From positions 24,433 to 65,000 of the forward strand of contig CAZUCU010000002.1 of the NCBI GenBank assembly GCA_964618845.1: a DNA stretch of 40,568 bases, written 5' to 3'. This document shows positions 9,980-24,577 of the stretch, piece by piece (positions within the stretch are counted from its first letter, which is position 1; each line of letters begins with the position of its first letter). Source of the stretch: an uncultured Candidatus Saccharibacteria bacterium (GTDB taxonomy: Bacteria > Patescibacteriota > Minisyncoccia > Phycocordibacterales > JAACPR01). The notes beneath the pieces are model-generated. The model was not told where the DNA came from. It did not search any database and worked only from the letters and a program-made list of their open reading frames with translations. The position numbers were made by a program, and so were the translations under genes.

Positions 9980-10660
9980 TTATAATGAATAAAGACCCTC
10001 TTTATCATCTCTAATAATTTTTCCATCTTCCATGGTTATCACCCTTTTTTTGAGCTCATCTATAATCCCCTTGTTATGAGTAGTTAATATAATTGTTGTA
10101 CCTAAATCATTTATTTTTTTTAGAATTTGCACAATATCATAAGTATTAATAGGATCTAAATGACCAGTCGGTTCATCTGCTACCAAAACATCTGGTTGGT
10201 TTACAATTGCTCTAGCTATCGCTACTCTTTGTTTTTCTCCTCCCGATAATTCATCTGGAAAATTATTTATTTTGTGTTCCAAACCAACTAACTTAAGAGC
10301 GTGTGGAACATCGGCACCTATTTCTTCATCTGGTCTTCCTGCTACCTCCATTGCAAAAGCAACATTTTCATAGACAGTTTTGTTGGGTATAAGTCTGTGT
10401 TCTTGAAAAATTGCACCTATCTTCCTCCTCAAATTTGTTATCTGATTGTTTTTTAATTTGTGAATATTTTGTGATTCATAATAAACCGAACCACTCGTTG
10501 GAGTTTCTTCTGCCAAAAGCAATTTCAATAGCGTAGTTTTTCCGGCACCAGAATGACCAACAATAGACACAAACTCATTAGGTTCAATTTTAATATCAAT
10601 ATTTTTTAAAGCTACTGTACCATCGCTATAAATTTTTGAAACTTTGTCAAAATAAATCAT
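9980..10660 (-). CDS. ftsE: Cell-division ABC ATPase FtsE
   Basis: Walker A GHSGAGKTTLLK, signature LSGGEKQRVAIARA, Walker B VLVADEPTG. Confidence 0.9.
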   Translation of the reverse strand: MIYFDKVSKIYSDGTVALKNIDIKIEPNEFVSIVGHSGAGKTTLLKLLLAEETPTSGSVYYESQNIHKLKNNQITNLRRKIGAIFQEHRLIPNKTVYENVAFAMEVAGRPDEEIGADVPHALKLVGLEHKINNFPDELSGGEKQRVAIARAIVNQPDVLVADEPTGHLDPINTYDIVQILKKINDLGTTIILTTHNKGIIDELKKRVITMEDGKIIRDDKEGLYSL

Positions 10661-10661
10661 C

Positions 10662-11546
10662 TTAAATATTTTTCATATTATCTATAAATTCTTGAATTTC
10701 TCCATCGAATACTTTCGATACATCTCCAACTTCAAAATTTGTTCTGTGATCTTTAACCATTTTGTAGGGGTCTAAAATATATGATCTGATTTGATTTCCC
10801 CATTTGGCAGAGGTATCTTTTGAAATTGAAAGATCTGCGATTTCCTTTTTTTCTTGTTCTTCCATTAAATTATACAGTTTTGCAGCAATAATTTCCATCG
10901 CTTTTTCCTTATTTTGATTTTGACTTCTTTCATTGGAAACAAAAGCTGAAATACCAGTCGGAACATGAGTAATTCTAACCGCAGTATCTCTTTTGTTTAC
11001 ATTTTGACCCCCGGGACCACCCGATCGTGCAAACCGAATCTCAAAATCTTCTTCTTGAATCTTAAATCCTGAATCATAAATCTTTAACAGAGGCAATACT
11101 TCTACCATAGCAAAGGAAGTTTGTCTTTTGCCTTGAGAATTAAATGGGGATTTCCGGACAAGACGATGAACTCCCGATTCAAATTTCAAATTTCCATAAA
11201 CATTTTTACCATTAATTTCAAAAGTAACATTTTTATATCCACCATTTGAATTTTGATTTTCATCCAAGAAAGAAATCGGCCAATTATTTTTATTACAATA
11301 ATTCATATACATTTCCAAAAGCATTCTTACAAAATCTTCGGCATCATCACCACCAACACCAGAAAAAATTGTCACAATAGCTCCACCCAAGTCATATTTT
11401 GAACCGCCCTCAAGTCCTGCTTTTAGTTCTTGAAGTTTCTTTATTTTTTGTTGAGCCAATTTTTTGTTATTCCAAAAACCAGATTTTAGCATCTCTTTTT
11501 CTAAAATTGATATTTCCAATAAAATTTTCTCTTTATTTATTTTCAT
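10662..11546 (-). CDS. prfB: Peptide chain release factor 2
   Basis: SPF tripeptide (KSPFNSQGKRQTS) and GGQ (SGGPGGQNVNK). The gene is continuous from the ATG at 11546 (MKINKEK), so no programmed +1 frameshift site is needed. Confidence 0.85.
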   Translation of the reverse strand: MKINKEKILLEISILEKEMLKSGFWNNKKLAQQKIKKLQELKAGLEGGSKYDLGGAIVTIFSGVGGDDAEDFVRMLLEMYMNYCNKNNWPISFLDENQNSNGGYKNVTFEINGKNVYGNLKFESGVHRLVRKSPFNSQGKRQTSFAMVEVLPLLKIYDSGFKIQEEDFEIRFARSGGPGGQNVNKRDTAVRITHVPTGISAFVSNERSQNQNKEKAMEIIAAKLYNLMEEQEKKEIADLSISKDTSAKWGNQIRSYILDPYKMVKDHRTNFEVGDVSKVFDGEIQEFIDNMKNI

Positions 11547-12180
11547 TTTCTTTATACGTATATTTATAAAATAGAAACATCCCAAATATTGCAACAATTG
11601 TTCCTATTCCAATAATTAATAAACTATGATAAACAGTTGCATATTTGGTCAATATACCTGGTGACATCATAAAAAGTATTGGTATCAAATCTATTAACAT
11701 ATGAATTGGTAAAAATCTCCAAAAAGAAATTGCAGTCAAACCAGCGGCATAACTTGCTACTTCCGGAACTGCTATCAATGCAAATCTTGCATATAAAAAT
11801 CCTTTTACCGTACCCATTGATTTAACCATTTTATAAATAAGAGGGGTTGTACTTCCTGCAAATTTCTCCATCAAATCCTTTCCAAAAATCCTACTTATAT
11901 AAAAAGTTACAGTTGCACCCAAAATATCACCCATAAGTGCATAAAATAACCCATTCCAAAAACCAAAAATAGGCGTAGCAATAATATATAAAAAAGAACC
12001 AGAAAGTGGTGCCAAAATGACAGTAATAGATTTAAGAAAAATAAACACCAAAGGTGCCCAAATTCCAGCTGATAAAACTGACTTTTGCAAATATTCATTA
12101 TCAATAAAAGAAAAAATGACTGTTAGAAAAACCAAAAATATAACAAGAAAAAGTAATTTAATTGTATTTTTTTTAAACAT
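11533..12180 (-). CDS. DedA / TVP38-TMEM64 family membrane protein
   Basis: LAPLSGSFLYIIATPIFGFWNGLFYALMGDILGATVTFYISRIFG is the family core. The start is placed at ATG 12180 because the upstream part of the listed ORF is the tRNA-Thr gene. Confidence 0.7.
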   Translation of the reverse strand: MFKKNTIKLLFLVIFLVFLTVIFSFIDNEYLQKSVLSAGIWAPLVFIFLKSITVILAPLSGSFLYIIATPIFGFWNGLFYALMGDILGATVTFYISRIFGKDLMEKFAGSTTPLIYKMVKSMGTVKGFLYARFALIAVPEVASYAAGLTAISFWRFLPIHMLIDLIPILFMMSPGILTKYATVYHSLLIIGIGTIVAIFGMFLFYKYTYKENENK

Positions 12181-17209: not shown

Positions 17210-17647
17210 CTAACGGATTGCTCGAATGAGACTAGTAATAAACATATTGCTTGCACTCACTTGGCTACTATAGGGGTCCCAGTAACAAGCAACAAATCCA
17301 TTGCCTGTGGCTGTATCATCTGAAATAGACCAGTAAGAACTGTGTTGTTCAAATCCTAAAGATACAATCAAATCTTTGACTTTTGTCTCTTTTTGTTCGC
17401 TAGATAAAGTTTGGTCATCCCATATTTCTCTGATAGGTTTTCCAATTTCTTTATATTCTTCTTTGGTAAGAACCCTCCACAGTTTTTCTCCAGGTTGTAA
17501 TGTTTTGTTTAGTTATAATCCTCTAATTCTCCCCCCCCCCCGATGGGTTTGGTCAAATGAAAAATTGACTTTATTGGATATTTTGGAATATAATACGGGT
17601 ACAAATGCCTTAGGCCTGCCCCTTAAATGGGGAGAACAAGAAGTCAT
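17210..17647 (-). pseudogene. Interrupted ORF: 44 codons, an in-frame TAA, then a 100-codon DUF1566/C-type-lectin-like C-terminal domain
   Basis: The ATG (17645-17647) overlaps the TGA of the upstream MazF-like gene (ATGA). The G11 tract is at codons 37-40. TAA lies at 17513-17515. The downstream frame reads GEKLWRVLTKEEY...SYWSISDD...ACYWD...IRAIR, resembling the WRLPT..EL / YWSST / VRCVR pattern of DUF1566. This resemblance is judged from memory. Confidence 0.4.
17531..17541. repeat. Homopolymer tract C11 (G11 on the coding strand)
   Basis: Counted directly: attct + 11 c + gatggg. It is the only long G/C homopolymer noticed in the window. Confidence 0.9.
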
Positions 17648-18039
17648 CTGATCAAATCCCAGATGGCTTTTTTGATTTTTTTTAATTCAAAACTATGCAA
17701 AAAACCGATTTGATTTGTAAATCTTTTAGTATCAATAAGTCTAATCTGAGATAAAATTGCATAAGCTATTTTATTTTCTACTAAACCAACTTCGTAATGA
17801 AATTTATTTTTCTTAATTTTAGAAGTTAGTGGAACAATTAAACAAACACTTTTATTAAAACCTTTGATAACTAAAACAGGTCTATCAAAATTATCATTTG
17901 CTCCATTTTGTTCAAATCCAATATTTTGTCCGATATTACACCACCAAATATCACCAGCATGATATTTTTTGTTTATTCTCTCTATATGAATTTTTTGCTT
18001 AAGTAAGTTCCAAAAAATAAATTTTTTTATAAAATTCAT
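17644..18039 (-). CDS. PemK/MazF-family toxin-like endoribonuclease with a 26-aa N-terminal extension
   Basis: HAGDIWWCNIGQNIGFEQNG...RPVLVIKGF...IVPLTSK...AILSQIRLIDTKRF follows the MazF fold pattern (GDIW..G.E..G.RPvlV...vvPlTs...dQirtid..R). Confidence 0.7.
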   Translation of the reverse strand: MNFIKKFIFWNLLKQKIHIERINKKYHAGDIWWCNIGQNIGFEQNGANDNFDRPVLVIKGFNKSVCLIVPLTSKIKKNKFHYEVGLVENKIAYAILSQIRLIDTKRFTNQIGFLHSFELKKIKKAIWDLIR

Positions 18040-20414: not shown

Positions 20415-20436
20415 ATACAAGATATTATACCAAACA

Positions 20437-20451
20437 CGAGGTTAAATCTTG
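20437..20451. promoter_or_regulatory. Degenerate copy of the palindromic motif (cgaggttaaatcttg) upstream of 20223..20414
   Basis: Part of the shared 22-mer acacgaggttaaa(c/t)ct(c/t)gaaaa, just upstream of the TATAAT of the downstream gene. Confidence 0.5.
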
Positions 20452-20461
20452 AAAATACAGA

Positions 20462-21046
20462 TTAAGGTCTATAGATTTCTTTTATAAAAATCACTTCTGA
20501 TTTATTGTTTAGTGTAATTTCATATGGAATCGTAAGTTTTACTCCATCCACACTATATATATCAACAAAATCTTTTTTTAATTCTTGTATAGATATGTTT
20601 ATTACTCCATCAGGAGATTTCTGGAAAGCACTCGCTGTTACTATCTTCACATTTGGTGAAAGAATAAATGTCCTAAGTTTTGTATTTATATTTCTGTCAT
20701 ATACACCATTAGTAAGGCAACCCATAGTATTTTCCAGTTCACGTGTACATTTACCATCGGCAATTAATGCTTCTATAGCTTCTTCCCCAGTAAGTACATC
20801 AATATAATCCAAGGTTATTTTATTTTCAATAATCGAATCTATGTATGCTGTTACAACTGTCACTTCATTACTAATATTTTCATTTGTTTTTGTATTAACA
20901 TTTTTAACATTATTATTTCTTATTGTTTCTACTTCAGAAATATCGGTAAGTTCTTTTGCATAATCTAAATACCAATAAACACCACCACTAATAATTAATA
21001 AAATTACAATTCCCCAAAGGGTTGAAATTTTTGTTTTCATATACAT
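20462..21046 (-). CDS. Hypothetical secreted or membrane-anchored protein (194 aa)
   Basis: N-terminal TM/signal (ISTLWGIVILLIISGGVYWYL). Two ATGs (21046, 21040) lie 2 and 8 nt after a TATAAT. Confidence 0.55.
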   Translation of the reverse strand: MYMKTKISTLWGIVILLIISGGVYWYLDYAKELTDISEVETIRNNNVKNVNTKTNENISNEVTVVTAYIDSIIENKITLDYIDVLTGEEAIEALIADGKCTRELENTMGCLTNGVYDRNINTKLRTFILSPNVKIVTASAFQKSPDGVINISIQELKKDFVDIYSVDGVKLTIPYEITLNNKSEVIFIKEIYRP

Positions 21047-21067
21047 ATATTATAACAACATTAAACA

Positions 21068-21082
21068 CGAGGTTAAACCTCG
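21068..21082. promoter_or_regulatory. Perfect 7-bp-arm palindrome CGAGGTT-A-AACCTCG upstream of 20462..21046
   Basis: Read directly. It sits within the 22-mer acacgaggttaaacctcgaaaa, 13 nt from the TATAAT on the minus strand. Confidence 0.6.
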
Positions 21083-21132
21083 AAAAGGTTTTTTGTTGAA
21101 AAATAAGGGTTTTTTGGAAAGTTAGGGGTTCA

Positions 21133-21147
21133 CGAGGTTAAACCTCG
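21133..21147. promoter_or_regulatory. Second perfect copy of the CGAGGTT-A-AACCTCG palindrome
   Basis: Same 15-mer in the same orientation, 65 bp from the first copy. It lies inside a doubtful 24-codon ORF (21122..21196). Confidence 0.6.
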
Positions 21148-21254
21148 AAAAACTGATACTAAAATACCAATAAAAAAATTCCACTATATTTTTCATAGAT
21201 AAAATTATACCAGTCCCTTCGCCTGTGTAAAATAAGTATTGAGAAATATGACGA

Positions 21255-21274
21255 TGCGCGAGCGAAGGGGCTCG
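21255..21274. repeat. Exact 20-nt duplicate of the tRNA-Asp 3' end (att-like direct repeat)
   Basis: tgcgcgagcgaaggggctcg at 21255-21274 is identical to 21467-21486 (T-stem 3' strand + acceptor 3' strand + 3 nt), in the same orientation. Confidence 0.9.
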
Positions 21275-21396
21275 TCCCGCAGTTACTAAACTCAAACTTC
21301 GCTATGCTCGTTTTCGTTAAGTACTGCTGGACGCGACTCGCGACCCACCTTCGTAAAACTCAGGTGGGTACCCCGCTCCGTCGTTCGAGCCCCTTC
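21264..21396 (-). other. GC-rich foldable segment of unknown nature (candidate structured RNA or integration scar)
   Basis: An 11-bp closing helix pairs gaaggggctcg 21264-21274 with cgagccccttc 21386-21396. An internal 8-bp hairpin pairs 21343-21350 with 21362-21369. An imperfect helix pairs about 21279-21291 with about 21321-21332. No known RNA family was recognised. Confidence 0.3.
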
Positions 21397-21422
21397 ACAA
21401 GCTCCGCTTGCTTCACACATAT

Positions 21423-21466: not shown

Positions 21467-21468
21467 TG

Positions 21469-21542
21469 CGCGAGCGAAGGGGCTCGAACCCTCAACCTCC
21501 CGCGTGACAGGCGGGTGCTCTAACCAGTTGAGCTACGCCCGC
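21469..21542 (-). tRNA. tRNA-Asp (anticodon GTC)
   Basis: The reverse complement reads GCGGGCGTAGCTCAACTGGTTAGAGCACCCGCCTGTCACGCGGGAGGTTGAGGGTTCGAGCCCCTTCGCTCGCG. Anticodon loop is CTGTCAC and the discriminator is G. Confidence 0.9.
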
Positions 21543-21846: not shown

Positions 21847-21881
21847 AAACTTATTTTATAAATTTTTTAGGAAAAAGAATA

Positions 21882-21911
21882 GCCCCACGGCGCGCTTGCG
21901 CGCCGTGGGGC
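21882..21911 (-). terminator. All-GC 14-bp-arm palindrome GCCCCACGGCGCGC-tt-GCGCGCCGTGGGGC
   Basis: It lies 15 nt after the TAA (21927-21929) of the GC-rich ORF and is followed on the minus strand by tattcttttt. Confidence 0.8.
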
Positions 21912-21926
21912 AAAAATTTATCCAAT

Positions 21927-22910
21927 TTATCCCTTTTCTCCCCAACCGTTTGAGGAGAAGGAAGAGTAGATCCACTCCTCGAACTCTAAAAGAAGAAACA
22001 CCGTTTCTCCTTCCTCGAACCGGAGATTCATCCCCTCAACATAGTCAAGGATCTGATCCGGCTCTCCCAACCGCCTACCCTCGAGGGTGGCGACACGAAC
22101 GAACTTCGGCTGATATTCGTATACGCTCATCGCGAATAGATTGATCGAAGTCGCTGTCACTTCAAACCAGGGACAATACCCGTATTCAGGAGCCATCCAT
22201 AGATTGAGGTTGTCTTCCTCATCTGGAGTCAACTGAGAGAAACCCTCGAATCCAATCCAAGAAATCTCAGATGAATCGACCACCTTGGGCAAAGCTTGCC
22301 CAGACCGGAAGTCATAGTACCAAGAGTTCCCAAAGCGATTCTCGATGACAAGATAGTCGTACTGACCACCCAACATCCAGCCGGGGATAGTTATTTCTCC
22401 ACTTGAAACATCGAGATAATACCTTTGTCCATTATGAAGACAGACATAGGCCTCCTCGGCGTCGTAGAACTCGAAACTGAGATCCGAAGCGGTGAAATAC
22501 AACTGCCCGACCCAATATGGCAAACGATAGGTTGGCCTACCATACTGGTCATATCCAACCCTCTCGAAACTAAAGTAAGTTGTAGATCGAAACAATTTCG
22601 TGCCCGATCCGTCCTTGATTTCAGCCGAGAGCTGGATCTGATCCCTCGGGTTTTGAAGCCGAATTTGGACTTCAACTTGACGAAGAATCTCCTCAACCTG
22701 TGAGATCGATTTGAACTCGCCAAGTTCGACGGTCTGGTTGAACTCGGGAGACATTGTCTCTGCTGAGCACCGAATTTCCGCCGTTTTTGCCATCGACAGG
22801 AGTTCAATCAGACCGTTTTGCCCGATGGGCAGACGGTCGGGAAACCCCGCTCCGATGGAGTTGACGATGAGACCGACGAGGGCCATGATGCACAATGCGA
22901 TGTGTTTCAT
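21927..22910 (-). CDS. Secreted protein of unknown family (327 aa), G+C-rich
   Basis: ATG at 22910 gives MKHIALCIMALVGLIVNSIGAG (signal-peptide-like). The mature part is aromatic-rich and predicted beta-rich. The longer track ORF (to 23033) overlaps the upstream gene and is unlikely. Confidence 0.6.
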   Translation of the reverse strand: MKHIALCIMALVGLIVNSIGAGFPDRLPIGQNGLIELLSMAKTAEIRCSAETMSPEFNQTVELGEFKSISQVEEILRQVEVQIRLQNPRDQIQLSAEIKDGSGTKLFRSTTYFSFERVGYDQYGRPTYRLPYWVGQLYFTASDLSFEFYDAEEAYVCLHNGQRYYLDVSSGEITIPGWMLGGQYDYLVIENRFGNSWYYDFRSGQALPKVVDSSEISWIGFEGFSQLTPDEEDNLNLWMAPEYGYCPWFEVTATSINLFAMSVYEYQPKFVRVATLEGRRLGEPDQILDYVEGMNLRFEEGETVFLLLEFEEWIYSSFSSNGWGEKG

Positions 22911-22932
22911 GTTGTTGGTTGTTGGTTTGGTT

Positions 22933-23163
22933 TCAGTTCTGAGTTGTGACTCCCTCGGGCGTGAATCGGGCATTGAGCCTGAAGCGCGCCTCGAAGGTCT
23001 GTTGTGGTGACCGTTCGGGGAGTGAGAGCTCACGAGGAGCCGTCACCCGAACGGTTTTCGAGGCTTTTGGAGCCTCCACTTGCTTCTCCTCTTTGGTCCC
23101 GCACGAAGCGAGTCCAAAAAGAAAAAGCACCGACATGACCGACATAGTCAAGGTACTCTTCAT
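22933..23163 (-). CDS. Small lipoprotein-like protein (76 aa), G+C-rich
   Basis: MKSTLTMSVMSVLFLFGLASCG carries a lipobox L-A-S-C. The stop is TGA. A 22-nt A/C-rich gap without a Shine-Dalgarno precedes the next ATG. Confidence 0.55.
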   Translation of the reverse strand: MKSTLTMSVMSVLFLFGLASCGTKEEKQVEAPKASKTVRVTAPRELSLPERSPQQTFEARFRLNARFTPEGVTTQN

Positions 23164-23172
23164 ACAAAAGGT

Positions 23173-23202
23173 AAGATATCATTTATTTGACAATCTGTCA
23201 AA
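23173..23202 (-). promoter_or_regulatory. Putative leaderless promoter TTGACA-17-TATCTT overlapped by the palindrome TTTGACA-atc-TGTCAAA
   Basis: On the minus strand the -35 is at 23196-23201 and the -10 at 23173-23178, with the ATG 9 nt downstream. The palindrome spans 23186-23202. Confidence 0.5.
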
Positions 23203-23216
23203 TATAAATTTTCATA

Positions 23217-23235
23217 TTTTGTGCTTCTGATTTCG
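23217..23235. repeat. GAAAT-rich dispersed repeat, short copy
   Basis: ttttgtgcttctgatttcg shares gtgcttctgattt with the copies at 16165-16177 and 16221-16233. Confidence 0.7.
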
Positions 23236-23248
23236 CACTTTTCATCAG

Positions 23249-23322
23249 TCCCGGGGGGCAGAATTGAACTGCCGACCTTAGCTTTATGAGTGCTACGCTC
23301 TAACCGACTGAGCTACCCCGGG
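23249..23322 (-). tRNA. tRNA with CAT anticodon, elongator type (Met or lysidine-modified Ile2)
   Basis: The reverse complement reads CCCGGGGTAGCTCAGTCGGTTAGAGCGTAGCACTCATAAAGCTAAGGTCGGCAGTTCAATTCTGCCCCCCGGGA. Y11:R24 is present, and there is one A-A mismatch at the base of the anticodon stem. Confidence 0.8.
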
Positions 23323-23323
23323 G

Positions 23324-23356
23324 TTTCGAATTTCTGATTTCTAATTTCGAGCTTCG
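23324..23356. repeat. GAAAT-rich dispersed repeat between the two CAT tRNAs
   Basis: tttcgaatttctgatttctaatttcgagcttcg. Confidence 0.7.
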
Positions 23357-23361
23357 TTCTG

Positions 23362-23432
23362 TAGCGGGGTCCGGAATTGAACCGGAGTCTTCAGGTTATG
23401 AGCCTGACGAGGTACCTCTCCTCTACCCCGCT
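23362..23432 (-). tRNA. tRNA-Met (CAT), initiator-like
   Basis: The reverse complement reads AGCGGGGTAGAGGAGAGGTACCTCGTCAGGCTCATAACCTGAAGACTCCGGTTCAATTCCGGACCCCGCTA. It closely parallels E. coli tRNA-fMet and has A11:U24, but has an A1:U72 pair and only two G-C pairs next to the anticodon loop. Confidence 0.8.
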
Positions 23433-23480: not shown

Positions 23481-23586
23481 AAGAGAAGCACAAAATTCGA
23501 AGTACGAAATACGAAACAAATACGAAGCTCGAAATTAGAAATCACAAACGAATATTTTTATTTCTGATTTCGAATTTCGAATTTTT
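23481..23586. repeat. GAAAT-rich dispersed repeat, composite inverted copy
   Basis: The left part is agaagcacaaaattcgaagtacgaaatacgaaacaaatacgaagctcgaaattagaaatcac. The right part, tttctgatttcgaatttcgaattt, is in opposite orientation. Confidence 0.75.
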
Positions 23587-23587
23587 C

Positions 23588-24577
23588 TCACTTCCTCCCC
23601 AAAACTTTATAGACTGCTTTGATTATTGCCCCAGAATCCATTTCCAAAAATTTGCCAATTTCTTCTGGATCTCCTGATTGTCCATATTTGTCTTTTACAC
23701 CAACAAATTCAATTGGAACTGGAAATTTTTGGGCTAAAAATTCTGCAACTGCGCTTCCCATTCCACCCACAATCTGATGTTCTTCAACCGTTACAAGTGC
23801 ACCCGCATCTTTTGCAATCTCCAAAATAATTTTTTCATCAAGGGGTTTTATTGTAGAAAGATTTATTAATCGAACTTTGATTCCATCCTCATCTAATTTT
23901 TTGGATGCTTTTAATGCTTCAAAAATAATAGGACCTGTTGCAATGATACCAACATCAACCATATCTCCATCAGAGTCAAAAAAAACTTGCCCTTTACCAA
24001 TTTTGAATGGAGTTTCAACCGTTGTAATAATTGGAGTTTTGACTCTTGTTGTTCGCAAATAAGTTGGTTTGTTATTAAAAGTAAGAGCGACTGTTGCCTT
24101 TTTTGTTTCGATACTATCACAGGGAGAAATTACAACCATTCGTGGCAACACCCTCATAAGAGCAATATCCTCAAGTGCTTGATGAGTCCCTCCATCCGGT
24201 CCATTGGAAATTCCAGAATGTGATCCAATAATTTTCACAGGTTGATCGTTGTAACAAATTGTAGTTCTAATTTGTTCCCAATTTCTACCAGGAGAAAAAG
24301 AAGCAAAACTTCCAATAAATGGGATTTTTTCCATTGCTGCCATACCCGACGCCATCGACGCCATATGTTGTTCTGTAATTCCAACTTGAAAAAATCTCTC
24401 CGGAAACTCCTTCGCAAACAAATCCATTTTTACTGACTCTGTAAGATCAGCACAAAGCGCAACCACCCTTTTCTCTTTTTTCCCAATTTCCAAAAGCCCT
24501 TCGCCAAAACCCTCGCGCGTCGCTTTCTTTTCTACATCGTTATCAAAAATTTTTTTGTTCAAAGTTTGATTTAGCAT
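23588..24577 (-). CDS. tkt: Transketolase, C-terminal subunit (pyrimidine-binding + C-terminal domains)
   Basis: FQVGITEQHMASMASGMA and GSHSGISNGPDGGTHQALEDIALMR. The ATG follows the stop of the N-terminal subunit gene with a 1-nt gap. Confidence 0.9.
   Translation of the reverse strand: MLNQTLNKKIFDNDVEKKATREGFGEGLLEIGKKEKRVVALCADLTESVKMDLFAKEFPERFFQVGITEQHMASMASGMAAMEKIPFIGSFASFSPGRNWEQIRTTICYNDQPVKIIGSHSGISNGPDGGTHQALEDIALMRVLPRMVVISPCDSIETKKATVALTFNNKPTYLRTTRVKTPIITTVETPFKIGKGQVFFDSDGDMVDVGIIATGPIIFEALKASKKLDEDGIKVRLINLSTIKPLDEKIILEIAKDAGALVTVEEHQIVGGMGSAVAEFLAQKFPVPIEFVGVKDKYGQSGDPEEIGKFLEMDSGAIIKAVYKVLGRK

Follow-up and report, generated by a model that had tools for sequence, protein, structure and literature searches.

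Genomic islands associated with tRNA genes have atypical G+C content, sharp boundaries and tRNA neighbors, and all of these are found at a two-gene operon that lies within 40,568 nt of contig CAZUCU010000002.1 from an uncultured Candidatus Saccharibacteria bacterium (assembly GCA_964618845.1); this whole stretch is called the window below. The operon, which encodes a small protein of 76 amino acids (aa) and a large one of 327 aa, is unlike such islands in that it has no integrase and no att-type repeats, is read from a resident promoter, has a conserved neighbor gene and occupies the same locus in related genomes. Judged by gene order, it is native and old at its tRNA-flanked locus and was not inserted there. 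We think it somewhat more probable than the alternatives taken together that it is a cell-surface operon native to Patescibacteria, with a G+C enrichment that is limited to the transcript and maintained in place.

Operons for surface-layer (S-layer) and other major surface proteins are, like this one, compact units that run from a near-consensus promoter to a strong terminator. Their products resemble the large protein in having a Sec signal, in being beta-rich, non-enzymatic and fast-diverging, and in carrying a peptidoglycan-binding addition in some cases. Unlike S-layer and adhesin families, the large protein is small (about 300 aa) and has no homology or fold match; and unlike S-layer operons, this one has an obligate small partner open reading frame (ORF) and a conserved C-terminal ...KG tail. 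The Braun lipoprotein (Lpp) is attached covalently to the cell wall through its C-terminal lysine. The large protein, as a predicted exported envelope protein with a lysine at its extreme C-terminus on a flexible tail, may be Lpp-like in this respect, an analogy that we offer as a lead; unlike Lpp, it has its lysine in the penultimate position (K-G), is no lipoprotein and is unrelated in sequence.

Heterogeneity of G+C content among the genes of one genome is a further point of comparison, and the reported effects are said to be modest correlations over core genes. In most bacteria the G+C content of genes climbs with recombination rate, selection for G+C is apparently stronger in low-GC species, and the biased-gene-conversion hypothesis (Lassalle 2015) is cited in the same work (PMC11879095). 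The operon resembles the genes considered there in that G+C at synonymous sites is raised in resident genes without foreign origin. It is unlike them in that the effect is confined to one operon, is limited to its transcript, recurs in many lineages, and reaches +0.36 in G+C content at third codon positions (GC3). No description of the protein family, its C-terminal motif or its compositional behavior turned up in the literature searched.

Base composition of the operon

The window has an overall G+C content of 31.7%, and its genes include a split transketolase, type IV pilus machinery, RNase J, GatB and aspartyl-tRNA synthetase. This gene content is that of a Patescibacteria contig of Paceibacteria/Parcubacteria-like type, in agreement with the nearest genomes. 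An earlier sequence-only reading had singled out two co-oriented minus-strand ORFs as G+C-rich outliers; both are present as it described (Table 1), and its hand counts of G+C in single 60-nt lines (16/60, 34/60 and 30/60) were all exact on recount. The remaining 41 ORFs of the window have a mean G+C of 0.311 (maximum 0.405) and a GC3 of 0.215 (standard deviation 0.035, maximum 0.31), and with GC3 values of 0.58-0.62 both genes of the operon stand about 10 standard deviations away. Codon use also differs from that of resident genes: AGA makes up 0% rather than 62% of Arg codons and CGG 32% rather than 2%, and GAG stands at 65% versus 20%. Lysine, isoleucine and asparagine residues are fewer in the encoded protein. 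The rise in C and G is symmetric, and fourfold degenerate sites have no added strand skew.

The limits of the G+C-rich block were obtained by a two-change-point likelihood fit run on the interval between the flanking tRNA genes. One is the first terminator-stem base, and the other lies 5 nt inside the ATG (23161-23163); this upholds the earlier claim that the composition step coincides with functional boundaries. The tRNA genes themselves, one tRNA-Asp and two tRNA(CAT), are where that reading had placed them, and between them the only ORFs are the two of the operon and a 77-aa ORF for a zinc-ribbon-like protein with four cysteines (the Cys4 mini-protein).

Such a strong outlier with sharp boundaries and tRNA genes on both sides might be taken for a foreign cassette acquired recently, perhaps from the host of an episymbiont, and placed at a tRNA-flanked island site behind a recipient-type promoter; this was the conclusion of the sequence-only reading, and a perfect 20-nt duplicate of the tRNA-Asp 3′ end nearby (21255-21274, identical to 21467-21486) would fit it. 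That duplicate, however, lies beyond the tRNA, on the far side from the block. As the same reading had noted, no integrase, transposase or terminal repeat was seen among the nearby ORFs: there is no recombinase-like Pfam match in the inter-tRNA ORFs or in 30 other window proteins scanned (of 43 ORFs), and no direct repeats bracketing 21871-23215 were found. At E ≤ 1, Rfam has no known RNA in or around the block except the tRNAs. Phage records gave no DNA match, and IMG/VR no relatives. What decides against a foreign cassette is the situation in related genomes.

The operon in related genomes

The relatives' DNA comprises 19 loci including the window (those named here carry the prefix L), which represent 13 distinct clusters of the large-protein family and are drawn from GTDB genomes, JGI metagenomes, ENA, Logan and NCBI assemblies. 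The search for loci used a five-member sub-alignment; the full family alignment has no sufficiently conserved stretch. The small ORF and the large gene are paired in all 13 clusters sampled. At L069 the order is identical to that of the window, with two tRNA-Met genes, the small ORF, the large gene, the Cys4 mini-ORF and tRNA-Asp. The nearest genome (L001/L058, transketolase 71% identical) has two tRNA-Met genes, the gene pair and tRNA-Asp, the Cys4 mini-ORF being missing, and L059 has two tRNA-Met genes, the pair and the Cys4 mini-ORF on a contig that stops before any tRNA-Asp. The L001 large protein is a homolog of that of the window (E = 6e-13). All of these related genomes carry the pair, and none was found with an empty site. 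Elsewhere the surroundings differ: one further group of genomes has the pair beside rpoBC, with prfA on one side and an inositol-phosphatase gene on the other, and a second has argS and ileS as neighbors of the pair.

The Cys4 mini-ORF, directly downstream of the operon also at L059 (6824-7039) and L069 (9082-9276), has the motif D-G-L-x-F-x-C-E-I/V-C-x-D..G-C-x-x-C-G-W/F-G in common in all three places, and the conserved Cys4 genes keep a resident-type GC3 of 0.18-0.20. The mini-protein has no Pfam or NCBIfam match.

Because the pair recurs at the same tRNA-flanked locus in relatives, we regard the operon as resident and not as an island. Neither recent acquisition nor insertion between tRNA genes agrees with homologs at the tRNA-Met, tRNA-Met ... 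tRNA-Asp locus in three other genome lineages, or with a pair that elsewhere sits between housekeeping genes. A host origin, which had also been suggested, finds no more favor: every sampled family member sits on a low-GC contig of Patescibacteria type, and no homologs were found beyond the family or in phage and viral collections. A one-off foreign insertion is thus excluded by the conserved synteny, and we give the acquired-cassette explanation very little credence. The sequence-only reading had itself held that homologs of like G+C at the same locus would mark an ancient native gene, and this is largely the picture obtained, with conserved synteny and G+C enrichment in most relatives.

The same loci bear on a possible assembly chimera, in which G+C-rich DNA of another organism would have been joined to the contig during metagenome assembly. 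The contig is of metagenome type, and tRNA genes can act as false assembly bridges; the joins, however, would fall in non-conserved DNA at the start codon and the terminator and not in the tRNAs, and the inserted genes would be exactly the family expected at this locus. The pattern also recurs in independent JGI, ENA, Logan and NCBI assemblies, with one protein found on 16 contigs. Since independent assemblies agree and the breakpoints would be in non-conserved DNA, a chimera is excluded for practical purposes, its probability being negligible in our judgment.

Two other observations were made in this set. At L063, an 85-aa ORF followed by a 339-aa ORF (10366-10623 and 10750-11769) lies 3.7 kb downstream of the family pair; these were considered as a second pair and rejected, their termini being unlike those of the family and their GC3 at background. 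A 16S-like stretch seen by eye in L067 was dropped, there being no Rfam support for it.

Table 1 Features at and around the operon, in window coordinates
Feature	Position	Strand	Description
Small ORF, 76 aa	22933-23163	minus	GC 0.554, GC3 0.623
Large ORF, 327 aa	21927-22910 (ATG at 22910)	minus	GC 0.494, GC3 0.576
G+C-rich block (change-point fit)	21882-23158		GC 0.509, versus 0.281 in the rest of the inter-tRNA interval
Promoter	23173-23201	minus	-35 TTGACA, 17-nt spacer, TG extended -10, -10 TATCTT
Palindrome TTTGACA-atc-TGTCAAA (TTTGACAATCTGTCAAA)	23186-23202		perfect; overlaps the -35 hexamer
Intercistronic spacer aaccaaaccaacaaccaacaac, 22 nt	22911-22932	minus	A/C-rich, no G, no Shine-Dalgarno
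Intrinsic terminator	21872-21911	minus	hairpin at 21882-21911, then T-run
Cys4 (zinc-ribbon-like) mini-protein, 77 aa	21613-21846	minus	resident composition, GC3 0.18
Two tandem tRNA(CAT) genes	23248-23322, 23361-23432	minus	directly upstream of the operon
tRNA-Asp(GTC)	21468-21542	minus	downstream of the operon

The G+C excess across the family

The large gene has a GC3 above the mean of its flanking genes at all 10 loci with enough flanking genes for the comparison (9 distinct clusters; z = 2 to 15). The excess ranges from +0.08 to +0.36, being +0.36 in the window and at L063, +0.33 at L068, +0.28 at L069, +0.20 at L067, +0.16 at L001, +0.14 at L054 and L057, +0.10 at L053 and +0.08 at L059. 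It is in the same direction on the short contigs L061, L062, L065 and L066, and none of the 13 sampled clusters has G+C-rich flanks around the family copy. Change-points at L063, L067, L001 and L066 place the start of the G+C-rich tract within about 30 nt of the small-ORF start and its end at the terminator hairpin; the promoter and the next gene have no G+C shift.

The large protein and its family

The large protein consists of a signal peptide, a beta-rich mature part and a flexible tail that ends in ...NGWGEKG. Its N-terminus, MKHIALCIMALVGLIVNSIGA|G, has n, h and c regions recognizable by inspection, and nearly all 40 family members have the N-terminal pattern of MK, a hydrophobic stretch and (A/S)-x-(A/Q). 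The family was assembled by an exhaustive HMMER search in which about 15 billion proteins were covered through 1.84 billion cluster representatives; E ≤ 1e-3 was reached by 40 clusters and E ≤ 1e-10 by 27 of these, the best identity being 34%. A word-indexed search of 5.8 billion proteins matched only the query itself when given the single protein, and two proteins only when given a 29-sequence profile. Nearly all members are about 320-345 aa long, with N-terminal signal peptides throughout. That signal or anchor sequences are kept across the family bears out the earlier view of an exported or surface module.

Conserved columns in the family are few (G, P, F, Y-D, G, P, E and a terminal G), and the alignment contains no catalytic-looking set of residues. 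The C-termini form a Gly-rich tail that ends in G in 38 of the 40 members, in KG in 28 and in GKG in 18; this ...KG tail could be matched to no described sorting or attachment signal. Pfam finds an N-terminal PG_binding_1 domain in 3/40 members and nothing else in any of them. That the large protein belongs to no recognized family, as had been said of it, is also the outcome of the other searches: it has no Pfam or NCBIfam match, and a sequence profile search of PDB was empty. AlphaFold run on the 40-sequence alignment gives a beta-rich model of three secondary-structure blocks with a mean predicted local distance difference test (pLDDT) score of 92.3 and a predicted template-modeling (TM) score (pTM) of 0.68, versus an unusable pLDDT of 41 from the single sequence. 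With this model Foldseek has no match in PDB at E ≤ 1e-3 (TM ≤ 0.16), and in a viral library it has three weak matches to Ig-like or tail proteins (TM ≤ 0.16). The large protein is thus a member of an undescribed exported family with a confident but unmatched fold.

The small protein

The small protein is laid out as an N-terminal hydrophobic anchor, a charged linker and the C-terminal sequence FEARFRLNARF. Its N-terminus, MKSTLTMSVMSVLFLFG-LASC-G, contains the lipobox L-A-S-C with Cys21, and by inspection it satisfies what is asked of a lipoprotein signal (charged n-region, hydrophobic core and lipobox); NCBIfam gives a weak match to a lipoprotein N-terminus (E = 0.011). At every sampled locus the large gene directly follows a homologous small ORF of 57-88 aa. 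The encoded proteins begin with a hydrophobic anchor, several with MKSTLT as in the window, continue with a charged linker and have the common C-terminal pattern h-x-h-x-F-G-L-x-A-x-F. The other 13 aligned small proteins have anchors that look uncleaved, in many cases followed by PKL, and in none of these 13 is the lipobox cysteine present at the aligned position. The description of the small protein as lipoprotein-like therefore holds for the window, where the LASC lipobox is present, but not for its homologs. BLASTP finds no match between the small proteins of the window and L001; homology among the small proteins is based on position, length, N-terminal anchor and C-terminal motif over 14 sequences.

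Promoter, spacer and terminator

The promoter had been recognized as TTGACA-17-TATCTT 9 nt from the ATG, and this is correct, with the addition of a TG extended -10. It has 10/12 matches to the consensus, and the 9 nt are counted from the end of the -10 box. Orthologous promoters have the form TTGAC(A/T)-16/18-TAnnnT at 14/14 loci, in most with the TG extension. Their -10 box ends 9-11 nt from the start codon at 9/14 loci by scan and at 12/14 after L063, L065 and L068 were re-read by eye, with an in-frame upstream ATG used for L065 and L068. We infer from the promoter's position that transcription begins at or very near the start codon, so that the operon mRNA would be leaderless or almost so.

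This arrangement is not peculiar to the operon. Across the window, Shine-Dalgarno-like sequences are rare (8/43 ORFs, even by a loose 4-mer test) and many genes have a TAnnnT -10 box 7-12 nt ahead of the start codon, a pattern that points to leaderless mRNAs as the usual kind in this organism; a literature search on leaderless or Shine-Dalgarno usage in these phyla returned nothing relevant. The sequence-only reading was right about the lack of a Shine-Dalgarno and the -10 box next to the start codon, but wrong to treat them as special to the block, since they follow a genome-wide rule. They do agree with its proposal that a host-type promoter drives the block, the start codon standing right behind the -10 box as in resident genes.

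The palindrome that overlaps the promoter is perfect, as had been reported, and is unique within the window. Among the orthologous promoters only that of L053 has a comparable one (TTGACT-tttt-AGTCAA), and because the palindrome is not kept in the others we reject it as a conserved operator.

The 22-nt intercistronic spacer is A/C-rich, again as reported, and spacers at most orthologous loci are likewise A/C-rich and without a Shine-Dalgarno, the exceptions being L053 (6 nt, no C) and L065. Spacers of the G+C-rich copies have more C; the non-coding shift is through C only.

The transcript would end at the intrinsic terminator, whose hairpin has 13 pairs, a 4-nt loop and a folding energy of -33.8 kcal/mol (z = -5.7). 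The hairpin had been described as all-GC with 14-bp arms; the terminator is real, but it is not strictly all-GC, with G-C in 12 of its 13 pairs. A G+C-rich hairpin and T-run follow the large gene in every orthologous locus displayed.

Possible causes of the G+C excess

Synonymous sites must be saturated among these genomes (transketolase 71%, release factor 1 (RF1) 79-91% identical), and an inherited G+C excess would not last among them unless some force sustained it. Maintenance in place is favored by a deviation that is always upward, by limits that are those of the transcript in several lineages, and by the fact that no G+C-rich home genome was sampled. The force would be local, and could be selection for G+C in the mRNA or gene (for example, for mRNA stability) or recombination-linked fixation that favors G+C at an exposed-antigen locus. 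Taken to its full extent, this would mean that the operon is kept at about 50% G+C in genomes of about 30% G+C in many Patescibacteria lineages, by a force acting on just the transcribed unit (recombination-linked fixation of very local reach, or selection for a G+C-rich mRNA because the surface-protein transcript is leaderless and heavily used), a gene-specific compositional equilibrium reached without horizontal transfer; we put forward this stronger statement tentatively, its chance in our estimate falling slightly short of even.

Three other causes were considered and set aside. Translational selection for C-ending codons is not the sole cause, as G-ending and CGN codons are up too. Transcription-coupled, strand-asymmetric mutation or repair is disfavored because C and G rise together without added skew at fourfold sites. 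Selection for amino acids of low cost has been proposed for gene transfer agents (PMC7360931), but the large protein is rich in costly aromatic residues (15.7% W+Y+F), which disfavors such selection here.

Several observations weigh against maintenance in place. In four lineages of the family (L053/L054, L057 and L059) the excess is small. The codon pattern resembles that of residence in a genome of roughly 50% GC, and the symmetric rise of C and G is equally expected from a G+C-richer donor genome. To our knowledge, a change in GC3 from about 0.2 to about 0.6 is far beyond the shifts attributed to selection or biased conversion in bacteria. Large-protein identities are 31-41% whether the RF1 proteins of the genomes compared are 79% or 91% identical, and the tree is star-like.

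The main competing explanation is repeated allele replacement, in which the operon is native but its alleles were imported independently from unsampled Patescibacteria of about 45-55% GC; the G+C-rich copies would be recent imports yet to drift toward resident composition. Amino-acid use, like codon use, resembles that of a genome of roughly 50% GC, and the large proteins diverge independently of their genomes, although the star-like pattern fits saturation equally. The excess also differs widely between close relatives (GC3 of 0.28 at L057 and 0.62 at L063, with RF1 proteins 84% identical), and the window protein is nearer to P0002, a family member of different synteny (34%), than to the L001 protein of the same locus (22-26%). 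On the other side, no donor-like context was found, the flanks being low-GC in 13/13 sampled clusters, and among the 1.84 billion representatives there is no homolog closer than 34% identity. All 10 testable loci deviate upward, and in several lineages the start codon and the terminator bound the tract. The Cys4 gene and promoter keep to resident composition, whereas homologous exchange anchored in the tRNAs or the Cys4 gene should bring flanking DNA too. We consider repeated replacement less likely than maintenance in place, but it is a serious alternative, with a far better claim than a foreign cassette or a chimera.

A model of the operon and its products

With maintenance in place as the preferred reading, the operon would be a resident, ancestral bicistronic unit in a Patescibacteria lineage of Paceibacteria-like type. 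Transcription would start from its near-consensus, extended -10 promoter of the sigma-70 type; with the start codon 9 nt behind the -10 box, the mRNA would be left with hardly any leader. The second gene would be preceded by the A/C-rich spacer, which is unstructured and has no Shine-Dalgarno, and the strong hairpin would end the transcript.

The first gene product would be small and held in the membrane by its N-terminus, followed by a charged linker and, at the C-terminus, a conserved motif of beta-strand type; that of the window is probably lipid-anchored through its LASC lipobox. The second would be Sec-exported and beta-rich, about 300 aa in size, with a flexible Gly-rich tail and a terminal Lys-Gly. 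Together the two may form a cell-envelope or surface complex in which the small protein acts as a tether, its terminal amphipathic strand possibly joining a beta-sheet of the large protein. The Lys-Gly tail is a candidate site of recognition, processing, attachment or cross-linking. An exposed envelope complex is suggested by the export signals, the wall-binding addition in some members, the beta-rich and non-enzymatic fold and the fast divergence, and exposure would in turn account for the very fast divergence of the complex.

Other features near the operon

Downstream, 3′ of tRNA-Asp and its terminator, positions 21250-21405 (minus strand) form a G+C-rich non-coding stretch whose very stable predicted fold (-74 kcal/mol, z = -5.4) has a 12-bp closing helix; there is no Rfam match at E ≤ 1. 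Besides the direct copy of the tRNA-Asp 3′ end mentioned above, it contains a 14-nt inverted copy of that end (21383-21396), and behind the tRNA-Asp of L001, too, a fragment of the tRNA-Asp 3′ end lies in G+C-rich DNA. The window's stretch may encode a small RNA that has gone unannotated, or be the scar of an old recombination.

Upstream, a 27-nt inverted repeat (23331-23357 and 23522-23548, 96% complementary) encloses the tRNA-Met gene at 23361-23432 and about 90 nt of upstream leader, and the fold of this region has z = -8.9. It may be a tRNA-precursor processing stem. Related repeats of the TTTCGAATTTCG type occur around it at 23218-23240 and 23482-23588.

Farther downstream, three copies of the hairpin-forming repeat AAACACGAGGTTAAACCTCGAAAA (20432-20455, 21063-21086 and 21128-21151) lie around a 194-aa ORF (20462-21046), and one copy scores as terminator-like. 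A gene for a MazF/PemK-type toxin (17644-18039, minus strand) lies beside NifU and cysteine desulfurase genes in an otherwise housekeeping neighborhood.

Significance for Patescibacteria

The usual signature of horizontal transfer is misleading at this locus: G+C content and codon use deviate, the limits are sharp and tRNA genes flank the block, yet the locus is ancestral and orthologs deviate in the same way. If this is true, composition-based island calls can err in streamlined genomes. If the G+C excess is maintained in place, the operon would be a natural test bed of about 1.3 kb, with exact transcript limits and many lineages in which the excess is graded, and would bear on which of selection, biased conversion and mutation sets the G+C content inside bacterial genomes. 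The operon also brings to light an undescribed exported family with an obligate small partner in ultra-small, probably episymbiotic bacteria, and the protein pair is a plausible part of the poorly understood cell surface with which these bacteria meet their hosts.

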